Shown: positions 11,716 to 60,942 of the stretch, one piece after another
How the letters are laid out: the number at the start of each line of letters is the position of its first letter
How positions within the stretch are numbered: the stretch's first letter is position 1
Source of the DNA: Somniosus microcephalus
Taxonomy: Eukaryota
Reading direction: 5' to 3'
Length of the DNA stretch: 64,000 nt
NCBI GenBank assembly: GCA_052327205.1
Contig: CM126211.1
Location: 16,678,001-16,742,000, forward strand
Translations under genes and position numbers: made by a program
The notes under the pieces: generated by a model
What the model was told of the DNA's origin: nothing
The model's database searches: none
Seen by the model: the letters and a program-made list of their open reading frames with translations, nothing else

Positions 11716-12482
11716 AACATAGAAACATAGAAGGTAGGAGCAGGAGTAGGCCATTCGGCCCTTCGAGCCTGCTCCGCCATTCAATGTGATCATGGCTGAT
11801 CATCCAAATTCAGTACCCTGTCCCTGCCTTCTCCCCATATCCCTTGATCCCTTTAGCCTCAAGAAATATATCCAACTCTTTCTTGAATATATTTAATGAA
11901 CTGGCCTCCACCGCCCTCTGTGGCAGAGAATTCCACAGGTTCACCACTCTCTGGGTGAAGAAATTCCTCATTTCAGTCCTAAATGGCTTACCCCTTATCC
12001 TTAGACTATGACCCCTGGTTCTGGACTCCCCGGCCATCAGAAACATCCTTCCTGCATCTAGTCTGTCCAGACCTGACAGAATTTTATAGGTTTCGATGAG
12101 ATCCCCTCTCAATCTTCTAAACTCCAGTGAGTATAAGCCCAATCGACACAATCTCTCCTCATACGTCATTCCTGCCATCCCAGGTATCAGCCTGGTGAAT
12201 CTTCGCTGCACTCCCTCCATGGCAAGAACGTCCTTCCTCAGGTAAGGCGACCAAAACTGCACACAATACTCAAGGTGCGGTCTCACCAAGGCCCTGTACA
12301 ACTGTAGCAAGACATCCTTGTTCCTGTACTCGAACCCTCTTGCTACGAAGGCCAACATACCATTTGCCTTCTTAACCGCCTGCTGCACCTGCATGCTTAC
12401 CTTCAGCGACTGGTGCACAAGGACCCCCAGGTCTCTTTGCACTTCCCCTTCTCCCAATCTATTGCCATTCAAATAACAATCT
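11716..12482 (-). mobile_element. CR1 LINE 3' end, low divergence (open RT C-terminal frame)
   Basis: ORF 11810..12526 RDLGVLVHQSLK...LVRPHLEYCVQFWSPYLRKD...GIKGYGEKAG; tail catagaaacatagaa. Confidence 0.95.
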
Positions 12483-14445: not shown

Positions 14446-16430
14446 ATAGAATCATAGAATCATAGAAAGTTACAGCACGGAAGGAGGCCATTTCGGCCCA
14501 TCGTGTCCGCGCCGGCCAACAAAGAGCTATCCAGCCTAATCCCACTTCCCAGCTCTTGGTCCGTAGCCCTGCAGGTTAGAGCATCCCAAGTGCACATCCA
14601 AGTACTTTTTAAATGTGGTTAGGGTTCCTGCCTCTACCACCCTTTCAGGCAGTGAGTTCCAGACCCCCACAACCCTCTGGGTGAAGACATTTCCCCTCAA
14701 ATCCCCTCTAAACCTTCCCCCAATTACTTTAAATCTGTGCCCCCTGGTTTTTGACCCCTCTGCTAAGGGAAATAGGTCCTTTCTATCCACTTTATCTAGG
14801 CCCCTCATAATTTTATACACCTCAATAAGGTCCCCCCTCAGCCTCCTCTGTTCCAAGGAAAACAGACCCAGCCTATCCAGTCTTTCCTCATAGCTAAGAT
14901 TCTCTACTCCCGGCAACATCCTTGTAAATCTCCTCTGTACCCTCTCTAGTGCAATCACATCTTTCCTGTAATGTGGTGACCAGAACTGCACGCAGTACTC
15001 TAGCTGAGGCCTAACTAGTGTTTTATACAGTTGAAGCATAACCCCCCCTGCTCTTGTATTCTATGCCATGGCTAATAAGGGCAAGCATTCTGTATGCCTT
15101 CTTAACCACCTTATCTACCTGGCCTGCTACCTTCAGGGATCTGTGGACATACACTCCAAGGTCCCTTTGTTCCTCTACGCTACTCAGTGTCTTACCATTT
15201 AATGTGTATTCCCTTTCCTTGTTAGCCCTCCCCAAATGCATTATCTCACACTTCTCCGGATTGAATTCCATTAGCCACTGTTCTGCCCACCTGACCAATT
15301 TATTGATATCTTCCTGCAGTCTACAGCTTCCTTCTTCAGTATCAACCACACAGCCGATTTTAGTATCAGCTGCAAACTTCTTAATTATACCCCCTATATT
15401 CAAGTCTAGATCATTGATATATACCACAAAAAGCAAGGGACCTAGTACTGAGCCCTGCGGAACCCCACTGGAAACAGCCTTCCAGTCACAAAAACACCCA
15501 TCGACCATTACCCTCTGCTTCCTGCCTCCGAGCCAGTTTTGAATCCAACTTGACACTTTGCCCTGGATCCCATGGGCTTTTAACTTCGTGACAGTCTGCC
15601 ATGTGGAACCTTATCAAAAGCCTTGCTAAAGTCCATATACACTACATCAAACACACTACCCACATCTACTCTCCTTGTCACCTCCTCAAAAAATTCAATC
15701 TAGTTAGTCAGACACGACCTTCCCTTAGCAAATCCATGCTGACTATCCTTGATTAATCCGTTTCTTTCTAAATGAAGATTTATCCTGTCCTTCAGAATTC
15801 CTTCCAATAATTTTCCCACCACCGAGGTTAGTCTGACTGGCCTGTAATTACTCGGTCTATCCTATTCTCCCTTTTTAAACAAGGGTACCACTTCAGCAGT
15901 CCTCCAGTCCTCCAGCACCACACCTGAAGCCAGACAGGATTGGAAAATGATGGTCAGGGCCTCTGCTATTTCCTCTTTTGCTTCGCTTAACAGCCTGGGA
16001 TACATTTCATCCGGGCCTGGGGATTTATCCACTTTTAAAGCTGCTAAACCCCTTAATACTTCCTCTCTCACTATGTTTATTTCATTTAATATTTCACACT
16101 CCTCCCCCCTGATGGCAATCTCTGCTTCACCCCTCTCCTTTGTGAAAACAGACGCAAAGTATTCATTAAGAACCCTACCGACGTCTCCCGCCTCCACACA
16201 CAGATACCCCCATGATCTCTATTAGGCCCTGCCCATTCTTTAGTTATCCTCTTACTCTTTGGGTTTTCCTTGATTTTACTTGCCAAGAATTTTTCATGCT
16301 CTCTCTTTGCTTTCCTAATATCCTTTTTAATTGCACCCCTGCACTTTCGGTACTCCTCTAAATATTCTGCAGTATTTAGCCCTCGGTATCAGTCATACGC
16401 CTCCCTTTTTTTCTTTATCTTACCCTGTAT
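14446..16430 (-). mobile_element. ~2-kb 5'-truncated CR1 LINE (RT domain, frameshifted)
   Basis: Minus ORFs contain KSPGPDEMYPRLL, SGVPQGSVLGPLLFVVYINDLD, KFAADTK (FADD variant) and LVRPQLEYCVQFWSP; (ATTCTATG)n tail. Confidence 0.95.
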
Positions 16431-24840: not shown

Positions 24841-24959
24841 CAAATTGCCTGAAGCTGAAGACTGTTTCAAACAGTGTTGAATGAGAATGAGTTACTTTTT
24901 TCCAAAATTAAATTAAGTTCTAAACAAATAATGATTATCACACTGCATTGGAACACCAT

Positions 24960-25795
24960 GGGCTGGATTTTCATTGAGGAGGTGGGTAGGAGGCGGGACT
25001 ACAACTTTCGGGGTTGTAGTCCCACCTCCATCGAGTTGTAGCCAACCCACGCGATTTAAACTTGATTGACCTTGTTGAGCCAGCCCAGCGGGCTCAGCAG
25101 GCCAATTAAGGGCCACCCGGCAACAGGTGACATCACAGATTTATATTTCATCTGTCAAGACCTTTTGACAGATGAAATATTAGCGTTTGACAGCTGTTTG
25201 AAGCTGCCAAACACTGACAATCTGTACTCTAAGTTAATTCCTTCCTCTCAGGATGATTTAGAGATCTCTCCGGAACAGAAAGCTGAATGATGCAATTTTT
25301 GACAGATCGCGGCCATTTTGCTTTCTGTGCCGGTGAGATGAGGGACTCCCGAGTCCTGAAGGAAGGAAGACTGTAAAGGTAAGTAAAATTTCTTTAAACA
25401 CTTTAAACACATCAAACACACTTACCTCTGCACTCATGCACCCATCACTCACCTGAACACCGGACATCTCGACCCCTCCAAGCCCTTCAGTCCGACGGCC
25501 CGCCTCGCTAACCTGGCGTGGCTTGGAGCCGTCGGGAATCCCACACTTCAAGAATGAAAATAGGGATTAAGCTAAAAACTGCCTGTTAACTACCTGTTAA
25601 CAGGCAGTTAATTGGCACTAATCCCCTTCCCGCCTCGGGGAGGTGGGTCCCAGTGCGGGTCGGGTACCCGCCTCCTTTGAAACTGGCATGGAGGCGGGTT
25701 GGGGGCGGGATGGGTTCGTGCCCCCCCTGATTTCGGGATTTTAACCCCCCACACGCCTCCAACCCCACCTCCACGGCCCAATGAAAATCCTGCCC
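24960..25795 (+). mobile_element. Harbinger-type MITE (family A, palindrome-rich)
   Basis: 17-bp TIR with one mismatch (gggctggattttcattg / caatgaaaatcctgccc), CAT TSD; three more copies in the window. Confidence 0.88.
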
Positions 25796-26006
25796 CATGC
25801 GCGCTACAACAGAAGATCTGGATTTTTATTACTTTTTCAAAAACGTGTTCTCCAGACATCTTTTAATACTACTGAAATTAATTGCAGCCCCCCCTCCCCC
25901 TTTCCCAAGGAAGAAAATGACAATTGTTTTCAAGAAAACTTGCATTTATATAGCACCTTTCACATCCTTGGGACACCCCAAAGTGCTTCGCAGCCAATGA
26001 ATTACC

Positions 26007-26263
26007 TGTTGTGTATGTAATATGTGTGCTACTTTGAACCTATGGACAGGACTGCACTACTTGTAGGGCGTAGTGATACGCAGTACCACTCCTGGCCATA
26101 GGGGTATAAATAGTTCTGTGGGTACTGATCTCCCCTCAGTTCCCGCCTGTGGGCATGAAGTAAAGACCTACGTATAGTCCCTACCTCCAACCAGTAAAGA
26201 CCTGTTTGAGTTATACGTTTAAGTCTTTGTGTTAATTGTTCAATACAATACACATACTTAACA
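26007..26263 (+). repeat. 5' LTR
   Basis: Differs from the 3' LTR by 3 substitutions and 1 indel (manual alignment); TATAAATA at 26105. Confidence 0.96.
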
Positions 26264-26264
26264 C

Positions 26265-26274
26265 TGGCGACGAG
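26265..26274 (+). promoter_or_regulatory. Primer-binding site TGGCGACGAG, complementary to the 3' end of tRNA-Ser(GCU)
   Basis: Lies 1 nt after the 5' LTR; complement of ...CTCGTCGCCA-3' (tRNA assignment from memory). Confidence 0.8.
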
Positions 26275-26937
26275 TCAGGTTCTTACCCTGCGGCAGTTGA
26301 AGAGAGGTTTCAAACATCACCACCCCACTAGAAGTAACAGGCTTTAGGACTCTGAAGCCTCCATCAGCGACTGAGCACTGGAGTGCAGCAGCCATCCTGA
26401 CAGCTTCCAGCGACTGACAGAAGTCTTTCTGCAGTTTCCTTGTTCAACCTAGGTGGTGGGGTAAGCCGTGCAGCGTTGGCTGCAAAGACAGGGCTGGGGA
26501 AGTTGGAGAAGATAAGGGCGATCGCAATCCCTGATAAGAGCCGCGGTGAAACGCGCGAGCGGGTAAGCCAGAGCCCGGGAGGGAGCGAGCAAGAGCCGCG
26601 CGAGCGGGTGAGCCAGAGGCCGGGAGCCGCTTCAAGTGCGAGGCGCAGCGCGGGCCAGCGATCAGGACCAAAGATAAGGGCCGCACTCGGACTGAAAGGC
26701 GCGGCGGCTGCAGAAGCTCAAGGTGCGAGAGCCGCGGTGCACAGCGCGGGCTATCGATCACGGCGAAGATAAGGGCCGCACTCGGGGGCTGAAGGGAGAC
26801 GGCGTCGGGGGACGGGTGAAGACCGCCAAGCGCGGGAAAACCGCCATTTTGTGGGCGGAGGACGACGGCAAGAGCGGGAAGCCGCCATCTTTGATAACAA
26901 GTAAAGAAAATAAAATCTGAGAAATTGCAAATCTACA

Positions 26938-29139
26938 ATGCCTAAACACGGGAATATTAGCACCTTTGATAGTGACCTCGAAGATTGGGCCATATATGTT
27001 GAAAGAGTAAAAAATTATTGTAAGGCCAATAAAATTCGTGACCAAGATAAAGCTCTAACATTATTAAATTTAATGGGTGCGAAGACATACGGGCAATTGA
27101 AACACCTGTTATCACCAGATGAACCGGCGGATAAGACGTTCGATGAGATTGTTACTGTCCTGAAAGATCATCTAAACCCCACGCCGCTGATGCTAGCGGA
27201 ACGATTTAAATTTTATGACAGAAGGCAGCTACAGCATGAAAGCAATGCTGAATATTTGCTGGAATTGCGTAAATTAGCGAAATATTGCCAGTTTCGAACG
27301 GGACTGACAGATGCACTACGAGACAAATTTGTGTGTGGTTTATTTAAACAGGATACACAAAAGCGACTGCTCGAGGAGAATGAGCTGACGCTTGAGAAGG
27401 CGGTCACTATGGCAGCAGCACACGAAGCCGCAGCGAGAGGCACGGCAGTAATGCAGCTACGGTCACCGGAGCTCAGTGCACACAAATTGGGTGTGAGTTC
27501 TGGCAAATGTTATCGTTGTGGAAAGACAACGCATGATCAGAACCAGTGTTGGTTTAAAAACCAAGAATGTAGAACTTGTGGTAGGCTTGGACATATAGCT
27601 AGAGTATGCAGGTCAGGGAAGAAGACCAGCAACAAGAAGTCACCGCAAGGAAAATACGCAAAGGTACACAAGGTGACCGAACAGGAGTCCGATTCAGACG
27701 CTAGCAGTAATGAACTGGCTAGCTTAAGCTGTAATGAACTGGCTAGCTTAAGAGTACTCAACGCTGGTAAGGGTGCAGGCCTCCAGACAATTTGGGTCAC
27801 TCTTCAGATAGAAGGAGTCCAAGTAAAACTGGAATTGGACACTGGATCGGCATTGACGGTCATAAATAAGAAAGATTACGGAAAGTTATTCCAACATATT
27901 CCCCTACAGGATACGGGGATTATATTGAAAACATACACGGGGCAAAGAGTGTACCCCATCGGGAAAATAGAGGTTGCAGTGGTCCACAAGGGCGAAGACA
28001 GTCAAATAATGGACTTATATGTGATATCTGAAGGAGGTTCTCCACTACTAGGACGGGAGTGGATTAGGAAAATGAATATGGACTGGCATTTCCTACAAAC
28101 AATAACGAGTGAGAACTCGGTGAAGATAGTCGGCCCAGACTCTGGAACGGATGATGGTAAGCCCAACTCAGGTGCAAAAGACAAAGTTTCAGCACAGAAT
28201 TCTACTGAGCAACAACAACATAGTTTAACTGTGGATTCTGAGTCTGGCAAGTCTACTGATGTGCCCATTTCTGAGGGACACCGGGCTCGAACTCAACTCC
28301 ATTTCAAACTACAACAGCAATTAGAACAAATGCTTCGCCGTTTTGAGCAAGAGTTGAATGCAACGAAAGAGTTCTTTGATATAGAGTTGGAGAATCTGGA
28401 AAGACAACAGAAGCAGCTGATGGAGAAAATGGAGCAGGAGCACACAAAACGTCTGATGTCAGAGGAGTTAACGGTCAGCCAACTCCTGCATATGCTGAAG
28501 GACAGGACTCTGAAATGGGAAAAACTTGAACACGAACTTCAATATTCAAACGAAAGGGGTTCGGAGCTCTCAAAGGTTATTGGAAGAGCTGAGGTGGCAA
28601 CACAGACTGAGATGACTGCAACAGAGCAGCCCTTGGATGCCAAAAGTACGCTGACTCACGTCAACGTAGAACAACAGACCGCTGAAACAGCTGCTCCGGT
28701 AGAGGGATTGAATAGTCCGATCAATCAATCTCCAAAAGAAGTTGAAGTAGTAAAATCTCAAATGAGGTCATTAGTAAACGACTTGCTGAAAGCCCAGAAA
28801 AAGCTGGATGAAGAGGTACGCATGAAGAAGTCTCTTCAGGAAAGATGTCTGGACTTGGAACAAAAGCTGGGTATGGAGGAAATAGAAGACCCTCTCGCTG
28901 GCCTAGATCAGGACGACACCGAATATTACTATGTCCTGTCCTGCCCAACTTGTAACTTCGACTCCCACCATACAGAAATCATGGAGGAGCACCGAAAGTC
29001 TACGGAACATCGGGAGAAGGTGGCTCTACTACGGAAAAAGGAGGAAGAGAAGGAGGAACTGCGCATGCAGCTGGCAGCTGACAGTGGAGCCCAGAGAGTC
29101 TCCAAGAAGCAGAAAAGGAAAAGTCGAAACAGAAGATGA
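26938..29139 (+). CDS. 733-aa chimeric Gag-protease-STK10-like-OPTN-like-zinc-finger polyprotein
   Basis: Uninterrupted ATG-to-TGA ORF. aa1-165 Gag capsid ([27 protein letters not shown]); two CX2CX4HX4C knuckles aa191-224; protease LDTGS aa300-304 and LLGREW aa370-375; host-like coiled coils follow. Confidence 0.92.
28273..28455 (+). other. STK10: Captured STK10 (LOK)/SLK coiled-coil (PKK-region) segment, aa446-506 of the ORF
   Basis: [57 protein letters not shown] versus remembered human STK10 [57 protein letters not shown]. Confidence 0.88.
28459..28869 (+). other. OPTN: Captured optineurin central coiled-coil segment, aa508-644 of the ORF
   Basis: [13 protein letters not shown]...EKLEHEL...EVATQTE...[43 protein letters not shown] versus remembered human [17 protein letters not shown]...ERLEVAL...EIETQTE...[43 protein letters not shown]. 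Confidence 0.85.
28942..29010 (+). other. Matrin/U1-type C2H2 zinc finger (C-x2-C-x12-H-x5-H), aa669-691 of the ORF
   Basis: [23 protein letters not shown] spacing. Confidence 0.65.
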
Positions 29140-29442
29140 CCCATCTGAACCATTATTACCTCTACCAGATCACACACGTGGTCCCTCCGAACGGAGCCAA
29201 TTCAGTTCGGAAGTTCAAACTGTTAAATCCATGGAAGGACTATTGAATGAGTCACTCCAGCAACGTGAACCGACTACACCACAGAGATTGAATCTGTGAA
29301 CTGTTTTCCGCAGAGACTGAATCTGTGATCTGTTTTGACATGAAGTTATCTATGTATCTATGTTATTCTGTTATGTAAACCTGAAGTTATATATGTATAT
29401 ATGTTATTACGTTATGTTAAATGGGGAGATGACTGTAAAGCT

Positions 29443-29455
29443 AGGAAGGGAGGAA
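29443..29455 (+). promoter_or_regulatory. Polypurine tract
   Basis: aggaagggaggaa directly abuts the 3' LTR. Confidence 0.9.
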
Positions 29456-29711
29456 TGTTGTGTATGTAATATGTGTGCTACTTTGAACCTATGGACAGGA
29501 CTGCACTACTTGTTGGGCATAGTGATACGCAGTACCACTCCTGGCCATAGGGGTATAAATAGTACTGTGGGTACTGATCCCCCTCAGTTCCCGCCTGTGG
29601 GCATGAAGTAAAGACCTACGTATAGTCCCTACCTCCAACCAGTAAAGACCTGTTTGAGTTATACGTTTAAGTCTTTGTGTTAATTGTTCAATACAATACA
29701 CATACTTAACA
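29456..29711 (+). repeat. 3' LTR
   Basis: Direct repeat of 26007-26263, followed by the TSD ttacc. Confidence 0.96.
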
Positions 29712-30653
29712 TTACCTTTGAAGCACAATCATTGTGTTGTGCAGGCAAACGCAGCAGCTGATTTGTGCACAGCAAGGTGCCACGTTCGCCAACCAAGATA
29801 AATAACCAGTTAATCTATTTTAGTAGGGTCGGTTTCAAGAGGGCACACGAGGTCGGGCACTTCCAACTGCCGAGAAAATCTTGCAATAATCATCATTATA
29901 AACAATATTTTATTTCACGGGCAACGTCGAATGGAATTTTCTCAACTGGCTCGCGTTCTATTTTGACAAGCTGAGAATAAACCTTCACAATTGAGAGAGT
30001 GGTCCTGTTAAACAATCATCTAGCGCTTCACTGAATTCAGCACAACTGCAGATATACGAGTGTGTTTAATTCTATGGGCGATGCTGGATTCTTTCCCCAC
30101 TATGCAATTGGTAATTATTATCCAGCGCATGAGTGAAGAGCCTCCAGGTGTCGTGTGCAGATCTGGGACGTGACTGCTGAATAAATACATTTCTTGGATA
30201 CTTTCTTTGTTATTACTAAATAAAATAGCCTTGTATGCTTCTTATATTGCTAATAAAAATAGAAATTAAGGAACGAAAGAAATACTCCTCAGCAGGCAGT
30301 GCACAGCAGATGACCAACTTCAAGTTGTGCAGCGGTTTTATGTGACGCTTGACCTGTGAAAGATTTATATGAATTCTGACCTGTGGAGGGAACGGTTCTT
30401 TGGCAAAAAATAAAGCTAATCATATTAAAATAGCGACAATGCCAATTAGAAAACTGTTTCTCTGAACTATTGACTCCGAGGTGATACAAATGACTGTCAG
30501 ATACAATTTCCCTACTTACAAAAATCAATTATTTCAAGGCTGTTTTCAGAAAAATCCAAACTTACTTGCAGATGCCAAAATCAGTAGCAGGAAAAACTGA
30601 GTCCATTTTCTTGCCTTCCTTCAAATGTGCTTTATGGAAACAAGTTAACACAG

Positions 30654-36233: not shown

Positions 36234-37737
36234 ACATAAGAGCTAAGAAATAGGAGCAGGAGTCGGCCATTCGGCCCCTCGAGCCTGCTCCGCCATTCAA
36301 TAAGATCATGGCTGATCTTCTACCTTATCTCCACTTTCCTGCACTATCCCCATTTCGTCCAGTGGTCATGAAAGGCACTATATAAATGCCAGTCTTTCTT
36401 TCTTTTCTTTATCCCTTGATTCCCTTAATATCCAAAAATCTATCGATCTCTGTCTTGAATATGCTCAACGACTGAGCTTCCACAGCCCTCTGGGGTAGAG
36501 AATTCGAAGATTCACCACCCTCTGAGTGAAGAAATGTCTCCTCATCTCAGTCCTAAATGGCTGACCCCTTACTCTGAGACTATGACCCCTGGTTCTGGAC
36601 TCCCCAGCCAGGGGAAACATCCTCCCTGCATCTACCCTGTCAAGCCCTGTAAGAATTTTGTATGTTTCAATGAGGTCACCTCTCATTCTTCTAAATTCTA
36701 GAGAATATAGGCCTAGTCTACTCAATCTCTCCTCACAGGACAATCCCCCCATCCCAGGAATCAGTCTGGTGAACCTTTGTTGCACTCCCTCTATGGCAAG
36801 TATATCCTTCCTTAGGTAAGGAGACCAAAACTGTGCACAGTACTCCAGGTGTGGTCTCACCAGGGCCCTGTATAACTGTAGTAAGACATCTTTACTCTTA
36901 TACTCAAATCCTCTTGTAATAAAGGCCAACATACCATTTGTTTTCCTAATTGCTTGCTGTACCTGCATGTTAACTTTCAGTGATTCGTGTACAAGGACAC
37001 CCAGACTCCTCTGAACACCAACATTTCCCAATCTCGCACCATTTAAATAATACTGTTTTTCTATTTTTCCTACCAAGTGGATAACTTCAAATTTCTCCAC
37101 GTTATATTCCATTTGCCATGTTCTTGCCCACTCACTTAGCCTGTCTATATCCCCTTGAAGCCTCTTTGCATCCTCCTCACAACTTACATTCCCACCCAGC
37201 TTTGTATCATCAGCAAACTTGGATATATTACATTTGGTCCCCTCATCCAAATCATTGATGTAGATTGTGAATAGCTGAGGCCCAAGCACTGATCCTTGCA
37301 GTACCCCACTAGCTACAGCCTGCCAACCCGAAAATGACCCGTTTATTCCTACTCTCTGTTTTCTGTCCGTGAACTAATTCTCAATCCATGCTAGTATATT
37401 ACCCCCAATCCCATGAGCCCTAATTTTGTTTAATAGCCTCTTGTGTGGCACCTTATCAAATGCCTTCTGAAAATCCAAATACACCACATCCACTGGTTCC
37501 CCCTTATCTATTCTGCTAGTTACAACCTCAAAAAACTCGAACAGATTTGTCAAACATGATTTCCCTTTCATAAATCCGTGTTGACTCTGCCCAATCCTAT
37601 TATTATTTTCTAAGTGCCCTGTTACCACGTCCTTAATAATAGATTCTAGCATTTTCCCTACTACTGATGTCAGGCTAACTGGTCTGCAGTTCCCCGTTTT
37701 CCCTCTCCCTCCTTTCCTAAATAGTGGGGTTACATTT
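36234..37737 (-). mobile_element. ~1.5-kb 5'-truncated CR1 LINE (RT domain)
   Basis: RPVSLTSVVGKMLE, QHGFMKGKSCLTNL, YLDFQKAFDKVPH, LGPQLFTIYINDLD, KFADDTK; a ~55-bp SINE tail is inserted at ~36356-36410. Confidence 0.95.
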
Positions 37738-52117: not shown

Positions 52118-52958
52118 GGGCTGGATTTTCAGTCAGCAGTCGGGAAGGAGGCGGGACTATAACTTTCGGGTTTTAGTCCCGCCTCCATCGACGTCCGGCC
52201 AATCCACGCGATTTTCCCTTAATTGACCTTGTTGAGCCGCCCAGCGGGCTCAGCAGGCCAATTAAGGGCCACCCAGCAACAGGTGACGTCACAGACTAAA
52301 ATTTCATCTGTCAAGAGGTGTTGACAGATGAAATATCAGTGTTTCACAGCTGTTTGAAGCTGTCAAACACTGACAGTCTGACTTCTAACCTGAGTCCTTC
52401 TACGCAGACTCAGTTAGAACTCTCACCATCACTGAAAGTTGAAGGCTGTCACTTTTGACAGATCGCAGCCATTCAGCTTTCAGTGCCGGCTGAGTGATGG
52501 ACTCCCGACGCCTAGAGGAAGAAAGGCTGTTAAGGTAAGTACAGGTAATTTAAACTTCTTTACACGCTTTAGACACACCAAACACACTTACTTTTGCACT
52601 CATGCACCCATCACTCACCTGAACACTGACATCGCGACCCCTCCAAGTCCTTCAACCCGACGGCCCGCCTGCTCTAACCTGGCATGGTTTGGAGCAGTCG
52701 GGAATCCCACACGACACCCCTCAAAATAGGGATTAGGCTAAAAACTGCCTGTTAACTACCTGTTAACAGGCAGTTAATTGGCACTAATCCCTTCCCGCCT
52801 CGGGTCGGCGGGTCCCAGTGCGGGGCAGGTGCCCGCCTCCTTTGAAACTTACGTGGAGGCGGGTTTTGGGCGGGATGGTGTCGGGATCCCCGAATTCGGG
52901 ATTTTTGCCCCCCCGCACGCCTAAAAGCCCGCCTCACGGCACACTGAAAATCTGGTCC
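52118..52958 (+). mobile_element. Family A MITE
   Basis: gggctggattttcag / ctgaaaatctggtcc termini, GTG TSD; collinear with 24960-25795. Confidence 0.87.
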
Positions 52959-57271: not shown

Positions 57272-58111
57272 GGCCTAGATTTTCAGTGTGCTGTGAGGCG
57301 GGCTTTTAGGCGTGCAGGGGGCTAAAATCCTGAATTCGGGGGTCCCGACACCATCCCGCCCAAAACCCGCCTCCATGTAAGTTTCAAAGGAGGCAGGTAC
57401 CCGCCCTGCACTGGGACCCGCCGACCCGAGGCGGGAAGGGATTAGTGCCAATTAACTGCCTGTTAACAGGTAGTTAACAGGCAGTTTTTAGCCTAATCCC
57501 TATTTTGAGGGGTGCCATGTGGGATTCCCGACGGCTCCAAACCACGCCAGGTTAGAGCAGGCGGGCCGTCGGGTTGAAGGACTTGGAGGGGTCGTGATGT
57601 CGGTGTTCAGGTGAGTGATGGGTGCATGAGTGCAAAGGTAAGTGTGTTTGGTGTGTCTAAAGTGTGTAAAGAAGTTTAAATTACCTGTACTTACCTTAAC
57701 AGCCTTTCTTCCTCTAGGTTTCGGGAGTCCGTCACTCAGCCGGCACTGAAAGCAGAATGGCCGTGAGCTGTCAAAAGTGACAGCCTGCAGCTTTCAGTGC
57801 CGGTGAGAGTTCTAACTGAGCCTGCGTAGAAGGACTCAGGTTAGAAGTCAGACTGTCAGTGTTTGACAGCTTCAAACAGCTGTGAAACACTGATATTTCA
57901 TCTGTCAACACGTCTTGACAGATGAAATTTCAGACTGTGATGTCACCTGTTGCCGGGTGGCCCTTAATTGGCCTGCTGAGCCCGCTGGGCGGGCTCAACA
58001 AGGTCAATCAAGTGAAAATCGCGTGGATTGGCTGGATGTCGATGGAGGCGGGACTAAAACTCGAAAGTTGTAGTCCCGCCTCCTTCCCGACAGCTTAATG
58101 AAAATTGACCC
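57272..58111 (-). mobile_element. Family A MITE (inverted)
   Basis: Close reverse complement of 52118-52958; no matching TSD (ttt/cag). Confidence 0.87.
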
Positions 58112-59136: not shown

Positions 59137-59951
59137 GGGCAGGATTTTCATTGGGCCGTGGAGGCGGGATTAGAGGCGTGTGGGGGGGTTAAAACCGAAA
59201 TCGGGGGGCACGAACCCATCCCGCCTCCATGCCAGTTTCAAAGGAGGCGGGTACCCGACCTGAGCTGGGAGCCGCCTCCCCGAAGCGGGAAGGGGATTAG
59301 TGCCAATTAACTGCCTGCTAACAGGTAGTTAACAGGCAGTTTTTAGCCTAATCCCTATTTTTATTCCTGAAGTGTGGGATTCCCGACGGCTCCAAACCAT
59401 GCCAAGTTAGCGAGGCGGACCGTCGGGCTGAAGGGCTTGAGGGTTCGAGATGTCAGTGTTCAGGTGAGTGATGGGTGCATGAGTGCAGAGGTAAGTGTGT
59501 TTGGTGTGTGTAAAGTGTTTACCTTTTCTTACCTTTACAGCCTTCCTTCCTTCAGGTCTCGGAAGTCCCTCATCTCACCGGCACAGAAAGCAGAATGGCC
59601 ACGAGCTGTCAAAAGTTGCAGCATTCAGCTTTCTGTTCCGGAGAGATCTCTAAATCAGCCCGAGAGGAAGGAATTAACCTGGAGTACAGACTGTCAGTGT
59701 TTGACCGCTTCAAAGAGCTGTCAAACGCTGATATTTCATCTGTCAAAAGCTCTTGACAGATGAAATGTCAATCTGTGATGTCACCTGTTGCCGGGTGGCC
59801 CTTAATTGGCCTGCTGAGCCCACTGGCTAGGTTCAACAAGCTCAATCAACTGAAAATCACGTGGGTTGGCCACAACTCGATGGAGGCGGGACTACAACCC
59901 CGAAAGTTGTAGTCCCGCCTCATACACGCCTCCAGTATCAAAATCCAGCCC
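59137..59951 (-). mobile_element. Family A MITE (inverted)
   Basis: att|gggcaggattttcattg ... aaaatccagccc|att; closest to 24960-25795. Confidence 0.88.
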
Positions 59952-60942
59952 ATTGTGTCCAACGCCCAAAGGACAATCAAGCAAATAAGGAAAAAGATTA
60001 CTAGCCTCAGGAAATCCTTCATGGCAAGGCCTGCCAGTTTTTCTATCTACCAAATAGAGGGGCAAAACATACCTGACAAAAAAGACTTCTTCTCAACCTG
60101 TTACACCATGACTGAGGCTGTATGCTGATCTGTCAGACAAAGACAGTTCTTTCAAAGCCGTACCTGCATGCCCATTGGAACTACTGGAAAGGTGAGCCCA
60201 CAAAAGCATTACAGCATAACTTAACTGGACGATGCCTTTTCATTCAGCGGTGATGCAGGGTGGACAATTTGGTCTCACTCTACATTGTCTTTAAGCTTCC
60301 AACGTCTCAGCACAACTTCTGTCCTTGCAGGACAAGGTGGCGCAAAAACAAATGGGGACAAACGTCAATGAGGAAAGGCCCCCGTGATATTAAAGCCTTA
60401 GGTTCCTTTCAGGCAGTGCTGGACATCCTGGGACCAGAATATTGAGGGAGCGAAACAGAATGCAGCCAGAATCCTCCCCAAAGCCAAGGGTTAGCACCAT
60501 CCTTTTACACTTATCCTTACTCTATTCACTCACAAGCATGAAATCCAGCATATCATCAAGACACACATTTGAGGTACGCAATCATTGTGTGAAGGGATGT
60601 CTTACAGCTAGCATTCTTCCATATATTCCTCTTCTCGTTCAATAAGTGACCCCCCCCCCCCCCCCCACCGCCCCGCCAAGAATCAGCCCTCCCTGCCCGA
60701 AACGGCCAGTAACCCAGCACCTTCTGTGAAGCACGCCACTGGTAGGATTCACCAGCACAGGTACTTATATTTAAATAGTGAGTGTGAGGAAAGTGGACTG
60801 AGTGACTCACAAAGCACAAGTGACCAGATGCGTGTGATGGTGGCAGAGAAGATGCAGCAGCCTGCTGCTCAGAAGTCCAGCTCAAGTCCTCCTTGATTTT
60901 TCCAATCATCCTTGCTGGTGTGACAGCGGCAACAGAGGGTTC

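Follow-up and report, generated by a model that had tools for sequence, protein, structure and literature searches.

The open reading frame at 26938-29139 of the window (the whole 64,000-nt stretch of DNA that was analysed) runs from a retroelement Gag through a protease into pieces of host genes, among them a block of the kinase STK10. How did host coding sequence come to lie there, and does it do anything for the element? In this study, we believe that the best explanation as a whole is a non-autonomous Gag-protease element that captured a circular host RNA, and we hold this view with good confidence.

The element in the window and the source of its STK10 block

The window contains a non-autonomous Ty3/gypsy element, 26007-29711, composed of Gag, protease and host cargo (Table 1). 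All the LTR hallmarks of Ty3/gypsy elements are present, that is, the TG...CA LTRs (257 and 256 nt), the primer-binding site, the polypurine tract and the target-site duplication. The reverse transcriptase (RT), RNase H and integrase that an autonomous element would encode gave no Pfam match in the window ORF.

Table 1. Features of the element in the window, with positions counted from its first letter
Feature	Position	Strand	Remarks
Left target-site duplication, TTACC	26002..26006	+	Repeated at 29712-29716
5' LTR (TG...CA)	26007..26263	+	3 substitutions and 1 indel vs 3' LTR
Primer-binding site, TGGCGACGAG	26265..26274	+	Start matches that in autonomous relatives
Single ORF, 733 aa: Gag, protease, host cargo	26938..29139	+	ORF and Pfam
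Gag with two CCHC knuckles	26938..27615	+	Pfam, motif
Aspartic protease, DTG motif	27796..28068	+	Pfam PF13975, E 0.0015, under cut-off; motif
STK10 exon B nt 192-269	28107..28184	+	88% to host
STK10 exon B nt 335-431	28181..28277	+	85% to host
STK10 block: exon D nt 38-124 and exon E nt 1-95; start of first PKK repeat	28273..28455	+	
Optineurin central coiled coil, aa 226-383 of P0019	28447..28873	+	90% nt to type IIb copy L084
STK10 exon A nt 73-90, remnant	28873..28890	+	Downstream of exon E (permuted)
C2H2 zinc-finger insert, then charged helix	28891..29130	+	Less diverged L086: Pfam zf-C2H2_jaz, E 5.4e-8
STK10 exon A end and exon B start, exon B nt 111-159	29131..29251	+	Exon junction at 29158/29159
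Degenerate remnant of the parent's integrase C-terminal tail	29252..29330	+	
Polypurine tract	29443..29455	+	
3' LTR	29456..29711	+	
Right target-site duplication, TTACC	29712..29716	+	

The preliminary description had assigned the block at 28273..28455 to the start of the STK10 coiled-coil region and had preferred STK10 to SLK. Its translation read as quoted there, and Pfam PKK (PF12474) matched aa 458-508 with an E value of 2.5e-8, over the curated cut-off, covering positions 1-51 of the 139 in the profile. All 16 protein matches were cartilaginous-fish proteins with kinase and PKK domains at 77-81% identity (15 named STK10, one a hypothetical protein). The host STK10 gene (L018, contig C8) aligned with the block at 94.3% identity over 88 nt of exon D and at 90.5% over 95 nt of exon E, and the paralogous loci L019 and L020 gave no blastn match, their amino-acid identity to the block being 55-61%. 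A generic coiled-coil match was ruled out by the STK10-type protein matches together with the host-locus alignment, and an SLK origin by the paralogs lacking a nucleotide match. The two paralogs are further STK10/SLK-like genes, on C30 near 27.43-27.49 Mb and on C8 near 2.28-2.42 Mb, respectively. The edges of the host STK10 exons were read as AG/GT with one GC donor, namely that of the intron after exon C (L018:4884).

The junction of exons D and E lies at 28359/28360 with the intron gone, which indicates an origin from spliced RNA. Capture of an mRNA had been proposed; the spliced RNA stands, and the linear template is corrected to a back-spliced circle by exon order and length, as described below. 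The suggestion that the linker at aa 390-445 came from the same transcript was borne out by the two exon B pieces, and sequences of 4-6 nt are shared at the joins near 28184, 28277 and 28455 (read from alignments); the description had proposed to look for microhomology near 28105, 28273 and 28456. The kinase domain is absent from the window element, as had been stated; the window ORF lacks the combination of kinase domain and two PKK repeats of a functional STK10/LOK. Two things were missing from that description, whose overall interpretation is partly supported: the STK10 remnants at about 28873-28890 and 29131-29251, which derive from exons upstream of those in the block, and the optineurin piece. 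The latter lacks the NEMO-like N-terminal domain, the LIR-like motif, CC2-LZ and the zinc finger of optineurin.

The zinc-finger insert presumably resembles DNAJC21. For its donor, a search of representative proteins gave three weak unrelated matches, Atlas scores were all below 0.9, and the PDB gave generic fingers only. Other repeats were also seen in the window. Inverted arms of 676 nt at 52237-52912 and 57317-57992 are 95% complementary and 4.4 kb apart, and related arms lie at 24953-25703 and 59215-59958; this set is possibly a DNA transposon family. Many fragments of LINE reverse-transcriptase C-termini, which we take to be CR1-like, occur at 150-491, 11810-12394, 14536-15508, 36465-37112 and elsewhere.

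Origin of the STK10 insert

The least reduced form of the insert (type I) was found in a search with the STK10 stretch that is missing from the window, which gave 89 matches, 3 of them host exons. Nearly all of the other 86 were contiguous across exon junctions. At the nine type I loci examined, STK10 aa 387-708 are followed in frame by aa 291-388. The host exons in the insert, A, B, C, D and E, measure 135, 675, 131, 124 and 180 nt, respectively, in sum 1,245 nt, and their order in the element is B(mid)-C-D-E-A-B(start). All joins lie at splice sites, including that of the E donor to the A acceptor (AAGAAAGAG followed directly by CACCCT). The insert is 1,245 nt long, or 415 codons without a stop, which is exactly one turn of the five exons. 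The pattern of the E-to-A join occurred 1,141 times in the genome at two mismatches or fewer (control, 0). At 21 distinct type I and II loci (23 rows, 2 of them duplicates), the motif was matched in 19 and carried one substitution beside the join in 2.

An exact non-colinear exon-exon join is the mark by which retrocopies derived from circRNA are recognised, and it is present in types I and II and in the ankycorbin piece described below. In the window copy itself, the back-splice join is absent, having been overwritten by optineurin, and the permuted exon order survives. The exon order, the exact join, the length and the lack of outside sequence point to a back-spliced circle that was copied once around. 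Judged from the sequences, the insert very probably arose when a back-spliced STK10 circle was copied into the element of an autonomous parent. Capture of a linear mRNA as the whole story was ruled out by the exon order and the length.

The parent is represented by the autonomous copy L089, whose PR-RT-RNaseH-IN order places the family rather than the window copy, and whose protease has a PF13650 match over the cut-off. L089 and type I are 98.1% identical over the 5' 2,210 nt and 97.7% identical over the 3' 406 nt, and type I equals L089 with 2,649 nt of pol exchanged for exactly 1,245 nt. The protease/RT boundary of the parent shares 11 nt with STK10 exon B, and the entry match TATTGGATGAG was found in all six RT-bearing copies examined as well as in host exon B. 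At the switch point in the integrase tail, parent and STK10 share 3 nt. LTR retrocopies of the kind described by Tan (2016) are characterised by spliced host RNA in place of an internal part of the element and by short matches where the template was switched, as seen here. Type I copies differ from host STK10 at 11-16 sites over about 1,258 nt, 7 of them common to nearly all copies, and with so few differences, the capture is recent when measured by divergence from the host. The private changes of type I comprise 30 nonsynonymous and 14 synonymous ones. A search with the kinase domain gave no multi-copy matches; its 96 matches were exons of STK10, of its paralogs and of other kinases. On the minus strand of L013, a frame of 370 codons adjoins a type I copy, and we assume that it resembles a Harbinger-type transposase.

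We propose that a particle of the autonomous parent enclosed an STK10 circle together with the element RNA. While the minus strand was being made, RT may have switched from the integrase tail of the element RNA to the circle at the 3-nt match, gone round the circle a single time, and switched back at the protease/RT boundary, where the 11-nt match would have guided its return to the element RNA. Destruction of the copied template by RNase H is established RT behaviour, and a single turn would follow if RNase H had already destroyed the starting point on the circle. The same route was very probably taken by an ankycorbin circle and probably by an EVI5 circle. The resulting element would use its own Gag and protease, and very probably borrows RT and integrase from autonomous relatives.

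Sequence alone cannot separate a circle from a trans-spliced RNA, and non-colinear joins can arise in other ways (Dong 2016, PMC4897178, as far as its available text goes). A linear RNA with scrambled exons, produced by trans-splicing or a transient tandem duplication, or RT jumps on a linear mRNA that landed on exon edges through the AG/G consensus, might then have been the source; the introns flanking the STK10 circle showed no inverted repeat between them at E<1e-8, which speaks for such a source. However, the insert has exactly 1,245 nt with nothing from outside the five exons, and the host region read (L018, L031-L033) holds a single set of exons A-E. Moreover, a random back-jump would land within 1 nt of both the end of an exon and the start of an upstream one in about 2 of 10,000 cases, yet such a join is found in two or three genes, and the EVI5 piece also ends just short of its own start. 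We consider a scrambled linear source very unlikely and retain the circle.

Descendant types, spread and transcription

In the descendant types, the STK10 insert was shortened, and pieces of optineurin, a zinc finger, ankycorbin and EVI5 were added in frame. The order of types given here reflects nested shared breakpoints rather than a rooted tree. In type II, the stretch from B431 to D37 was deleted in frame. In type IIb, optineurin was inserted between E125 and A50 or A73, and this insertion erased the STK10 back-splice join. L086 adds the zinc finger at A90. Type III, to which the window copy belongs, has the type II deletion and the A73 and A90 joins in common with these, shows further deletions, and keeps optineurin aa 226-383. 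Its remnants of exon A and the start of exon B still lie downstream of exon E. Because of these permuted remnants and the deletions in common with types II and IIb, we trace the window copy to the circle as well. Owing to a frameshift near 29080, the ORF stops at 29139, and the STK10 tail, which runs up to the exit point, is left outside the main ORF in type III.

The STK10 pieces of type III are 85-94% identical to the host, while its 5' half (26007-28106) is closer to the RT-bearing L091 (698-5709) than to L089. Gag-protease identity is 88% to L091 vs about 80% to L089, which suggests that the 5' half was swapped between subfamilies. The optineurin piece is colinear and gives no sign of a circle. 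The host optineurin gene was masked by element copies in the genome search, and the optineurin reference used here is another element copy. Type IIb (L079-L088) carries a longer optineurin piece, from about aa 131, with a DSFVEI motif that we take to be LIR-like and that was lost in the window's type; the type IIb search gave 4,329 first-look candidates, which is not a copy number.

Type IV was reached through loose read ends in the RNA-seq alignment, and its junction pattern had 3,367 matches (control, 0). It adds ankycorbin, and some copies also add EVI5, with the STK10 D/E coil cut to 46 codons. The ankycorbin piece is permuted. In the host ankycorbin gene (C13), the penultimate exon ends in TGTTCAG before gt, and a far upstream exon starts with GAGTTAG after ag. 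Of 15 distinct type IV loci, 14 have those two edges joined exactly, including one that carries a substitution at this point, and the fifteenth is interrupted by a LINE; exon end and acceptor share 5-6 nt of chance identity at this join. The EVI5 piece consists of aa 637-641 followed by aa 416-636 with an internal deletion, and stops just before its own starting point. Its join, DLEIQ/HK, was found at 4 distinct loci, and both sides coincide with the edges of isoform indels in other sharks. As read from the sequences, the exact back-splice join of ankycorbin indicates a circular source, and EVI5 probably had one likewise. Two circles are thus backed by the exon edges of this genome and the third by proxy, since the EVI5 edges come from isoforms of other sharks. 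The host ankycorbin-like gene itself holds the RT-bearing L091 and a type IV copy (L100:8222-8854, minus strand), and a type III copy lies downstream of its last exon (L091, L100, L103 region).

Deletions and further captures (optineurin, zinc finger, ankycorbin and EVI5) gave rise to the later types, and the captured pieces are all read in frame with Gag-protease. The frame at the joins bears on whether chance was enough. Rearrangement joins were in frame where first seen in all 16 mappable cases. Chance shared words among these coiled-coil sequences are in frame in 45-70% of cases, and those of pol and STK10 in about 30%. Because chance words are often in frame and a protein-led discovery favours open frames, this bias is suggestive, not final.

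In the genome of 6.45 Gb, the 150 best-scoring of 16,202 first-look candidates for the STK10 block showed 100% identity to it without exception. The window's type is marked by a 24-nt pattern that spans the STK10-optineurin join; this pattern occurred 4,308 times (reversed control, 0), and the three non-overlapping types together gave at least 8,816 pattern matches. Target duplications of 5 bp flank the copies with two LTRs (of 36, 2 were imperfect and 1 was without an LTR pair), and LTR pairs at nine type III loci are 98.8-100% identical. Dispersed copies with distinct target duplications indicate further retroposition as a non-autonomous element. A domesticated host gene, that is, a single fixed locus without hallmarks of mobility, was ruled out by the 4,308 junction matches and the near-identical LTR pairs.

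In two RNA-seq runs, 18,293 and 17,347 reads matched at 90% identity or more and covered all 30 bins of the element; these reads represent the family as a whole, and the species under which they are labelled is possibly not that of the window. In run X23, most first mates fell on the minus strand, in 5- to 34-fold excess across the ORF; provided that the library follows the usual stranded design, the transcripts are sense. Among runs X1-X13, ten runs with three organism labels from four studies hold at least two-thirds of the element's words. Runs of organism D hold a share of 0.31-0.41, and their contigs include the optineurin part. No RNA run holding the element's words was found among the indexed runs, where shares below 0.2 were left out. 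The element family may span several species.

Role of the cargo and comparison with known systems

Selection was assessed by re-dealing the observed substitutions to random sites and taking the ratio of observed to expected amino-acid changes. The ratios of Gag and protease in the window were 0.59 and 0.67, respectively (P<=0.0002), and those of the STK10 linker, STK10 coil and optineurin were 0.91, 0.79 (P=0.13) and 0.91, respectively. All window cargo taken together gave 0.88 (P=0.049), and the out-of-frame tail 1.12. Gag and protease are under purifying selection, and the window's cargo barely so. In three type IV copies, the coil pieces gave 0.51-0.91, with P<0.04 in 8 of 9 tests, and the STK10 linker piece gave 0.84-1.07. 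The AlphaFold2 single-sequence model has helices at aa 446-560, 599-646 and 676-732, and the STK10 and optineurin pieces form one helix of 115 residues in it. Continuity of the heptads across the STK10-optineurin join was not found, the phase shifting there. A homodimer prediction for aa 446-652 scored 0.00 and was given no weight either way.

The preliminary description had also suggested a function for the STK10 piece, either in directing Gag particles to the cell cortex or as a dominant-negative fragment. It is indeed the D/E coil that all types retain in frame from STK10, this coil is constrained in two of three type IV copies (0.72 and 0.69), and the family is transcribed. However, of the two PKK repeats, the window piece retains about a third of the first (51 positions out of 139); 8 of its 59 residues are changed, and with 8 amino-acid changes vs 10.1 expected (P=0.13), it is under no significant constraint in a test of low power. 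Across the lineage, the piece was progressively trimmed, and the shortened type IV version has drifted to 70-85% identity while other coiled coils join it. We consider an STK10-specific role extremely unlikely.

Judging by these sequences, we lean towards a cargo that is generic, open and mostly helical filler in place of Pol. Selection would then act on the frame and weakly on helical character, and not on any STK10 interaction.

A more specific job for the coils is tentative. Captured coiled coils might replace RT as a dimerising or assembly partner behind the protease, a good coil giving better maturation and amplification. Dimerisation of Gag-Pol sets off protease activation in HIV-1, where Gag cleavage is also increased by a fused leucine zipper (available text of PMC5899837), and an involvement of RT in this is stated in the accessible part of PMC11998509. 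Coiled-coil regions came from four of five donors, the coil pieces of type IV are under the purifying selection given above, and the lineages gained sequence rather than deleting the insert. On the other hand, the window's own cargo is nearly neutral, its heptad phase is discontinuous, and the optineurin reference is an element copy, not the host gene. The common Glu, Lys and Gln codons would favour switches between coiled-coil RNAs even without selection, and HIV is a distant analogy. We regard a dimerising role as possible but doubtful.

At the other extreme, the captures may all have been microhomology accidents and the cargo a pure passenger, with copy number set by the LTR and Gag-protease halves alone. 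Neither the STK10 nor the optineurin piece of the window is under significant constraint, type III took on a new 5' half, as its closer match to L091 suggests, and one frameshift was tolerated close to the 3' end. Against this, 16 of 16 joins in frame would have, at 0.5-0.65 each, a chance of about 1e-5 to 1e-3 (hand arithmetic, before ascertainment bias), and a shuffled null puts a stop into the window cargo in 95% of trials, where none is present. Open frames of at least 720 codons also contain 116 of the 150 best-scoring copies, which are biased to young ones. A pure passenger is unlikely, and we keep to a cargo maintained mainly as an open helical frame.

We would also raise, as speculation that we do not favour, that circles are a preferred and repeated cargo, packaged and copied for one turn, and that coiled-coil circles in phase were selected for a structural job of Pol. 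If this were true, Gag-protease elements whose polyprotein tails are newly built from host circles would form a class of their own and would have outgrown their autonomous parents. In shark genomes, such copies could pass for duplications of host genes.

The backbone of the family is that of Ty3/gypsy elements with a single Gag-Pol frame, which we take to be Mag-like: LTRs, primer-binding site, polypurine tract, 5-bp target duplication, two CCHC knuckles and protease agree. The parent keeps the PR-RT-RH-IN order, whereas the window's type has host cargo for RT, RNase H and integrase. In the literature searched, with subscription journals thinly covered, no paper was found on the capture of one turn of a circRNA into a Gag-protease frame or its recurrence, or on 'circSTK10'.

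Studies have shown that circRNAs can give rise to pseudogenes. For example, the mouse circRFWD2 pseudogenes are many copies from one circle, 33 of high confidence, and their carrier and route are stated to be unknown in the available text of PMC4897178. Like the shark element, they are numerous, lack poly(A) and join exons in non-colinear order exactly at the splice sites, and LTR sequence is enriched in their flanks. In contrast to what that text describes, the shark case has an autonomous parent, both switch points and a one-turn length, and its circle is read in frame with Gag-protease, is present in thousands of copies and recurs with other circles. As far as the available text of a 2025 review goes, Dong 2016 is still cited for the class of circRNA-derived pseudogenes (PMC12747553).

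LTR-mediated retroposition, as described in the main text of PMC5131818, is similar in several ways: host RNA takes the place of an internal part of the ORF, the two switch points show short matches, neither LTR is lost, and further non-autonomous rounds and multi-gene chimeras occur. The cases described there are low-copy, and neither 'circular' nor 'in frame' appears in that main text (0 times each), whereas the shark element reaches thousands of copies and has a polyprotein tail that is read in frame. Maize Bs1 is likewise an LTR element with three host-gene pieces in one translated chimeric ORF (PMC13317346). It comes from a plant, and no circular template is reported for it in the accessible text, whereas the shark lineage has five donors, nested intermediates and a kept protease.

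A preprint on a shark genome (10.1101/2024.09.09.611499) reports single-exon OPTN copies next to LINEs or LTRs, which may resemble the cargo of the element. It reads them as retrogenes or gene duplications, and the main text is without circles or element cargo. With fragments of STK10, optineurin, ankycorbin and EVI5 in the pattern matches counted above, analyses of the duplication and expression of these four genes in such sharks can be badly confounded.

The ingredients of this case, namely LTR-mediated retroposition, circRNA-derived pseudogenes and elements such as maize Bs1, are known, and the record here is unusually complete: host exons, parent, both switch points, one-turn insert and nested descendants are all kept in one genome. 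Capture of circles by template switching would have happened two or three times in one lineage, and the copies may serve as fossil evidence of circles present in shark germ cells. The available text of PMC4897178 leaves the route of circRNA retroposition open, and the shark genome makes a template-switch model for circles directly checkable.
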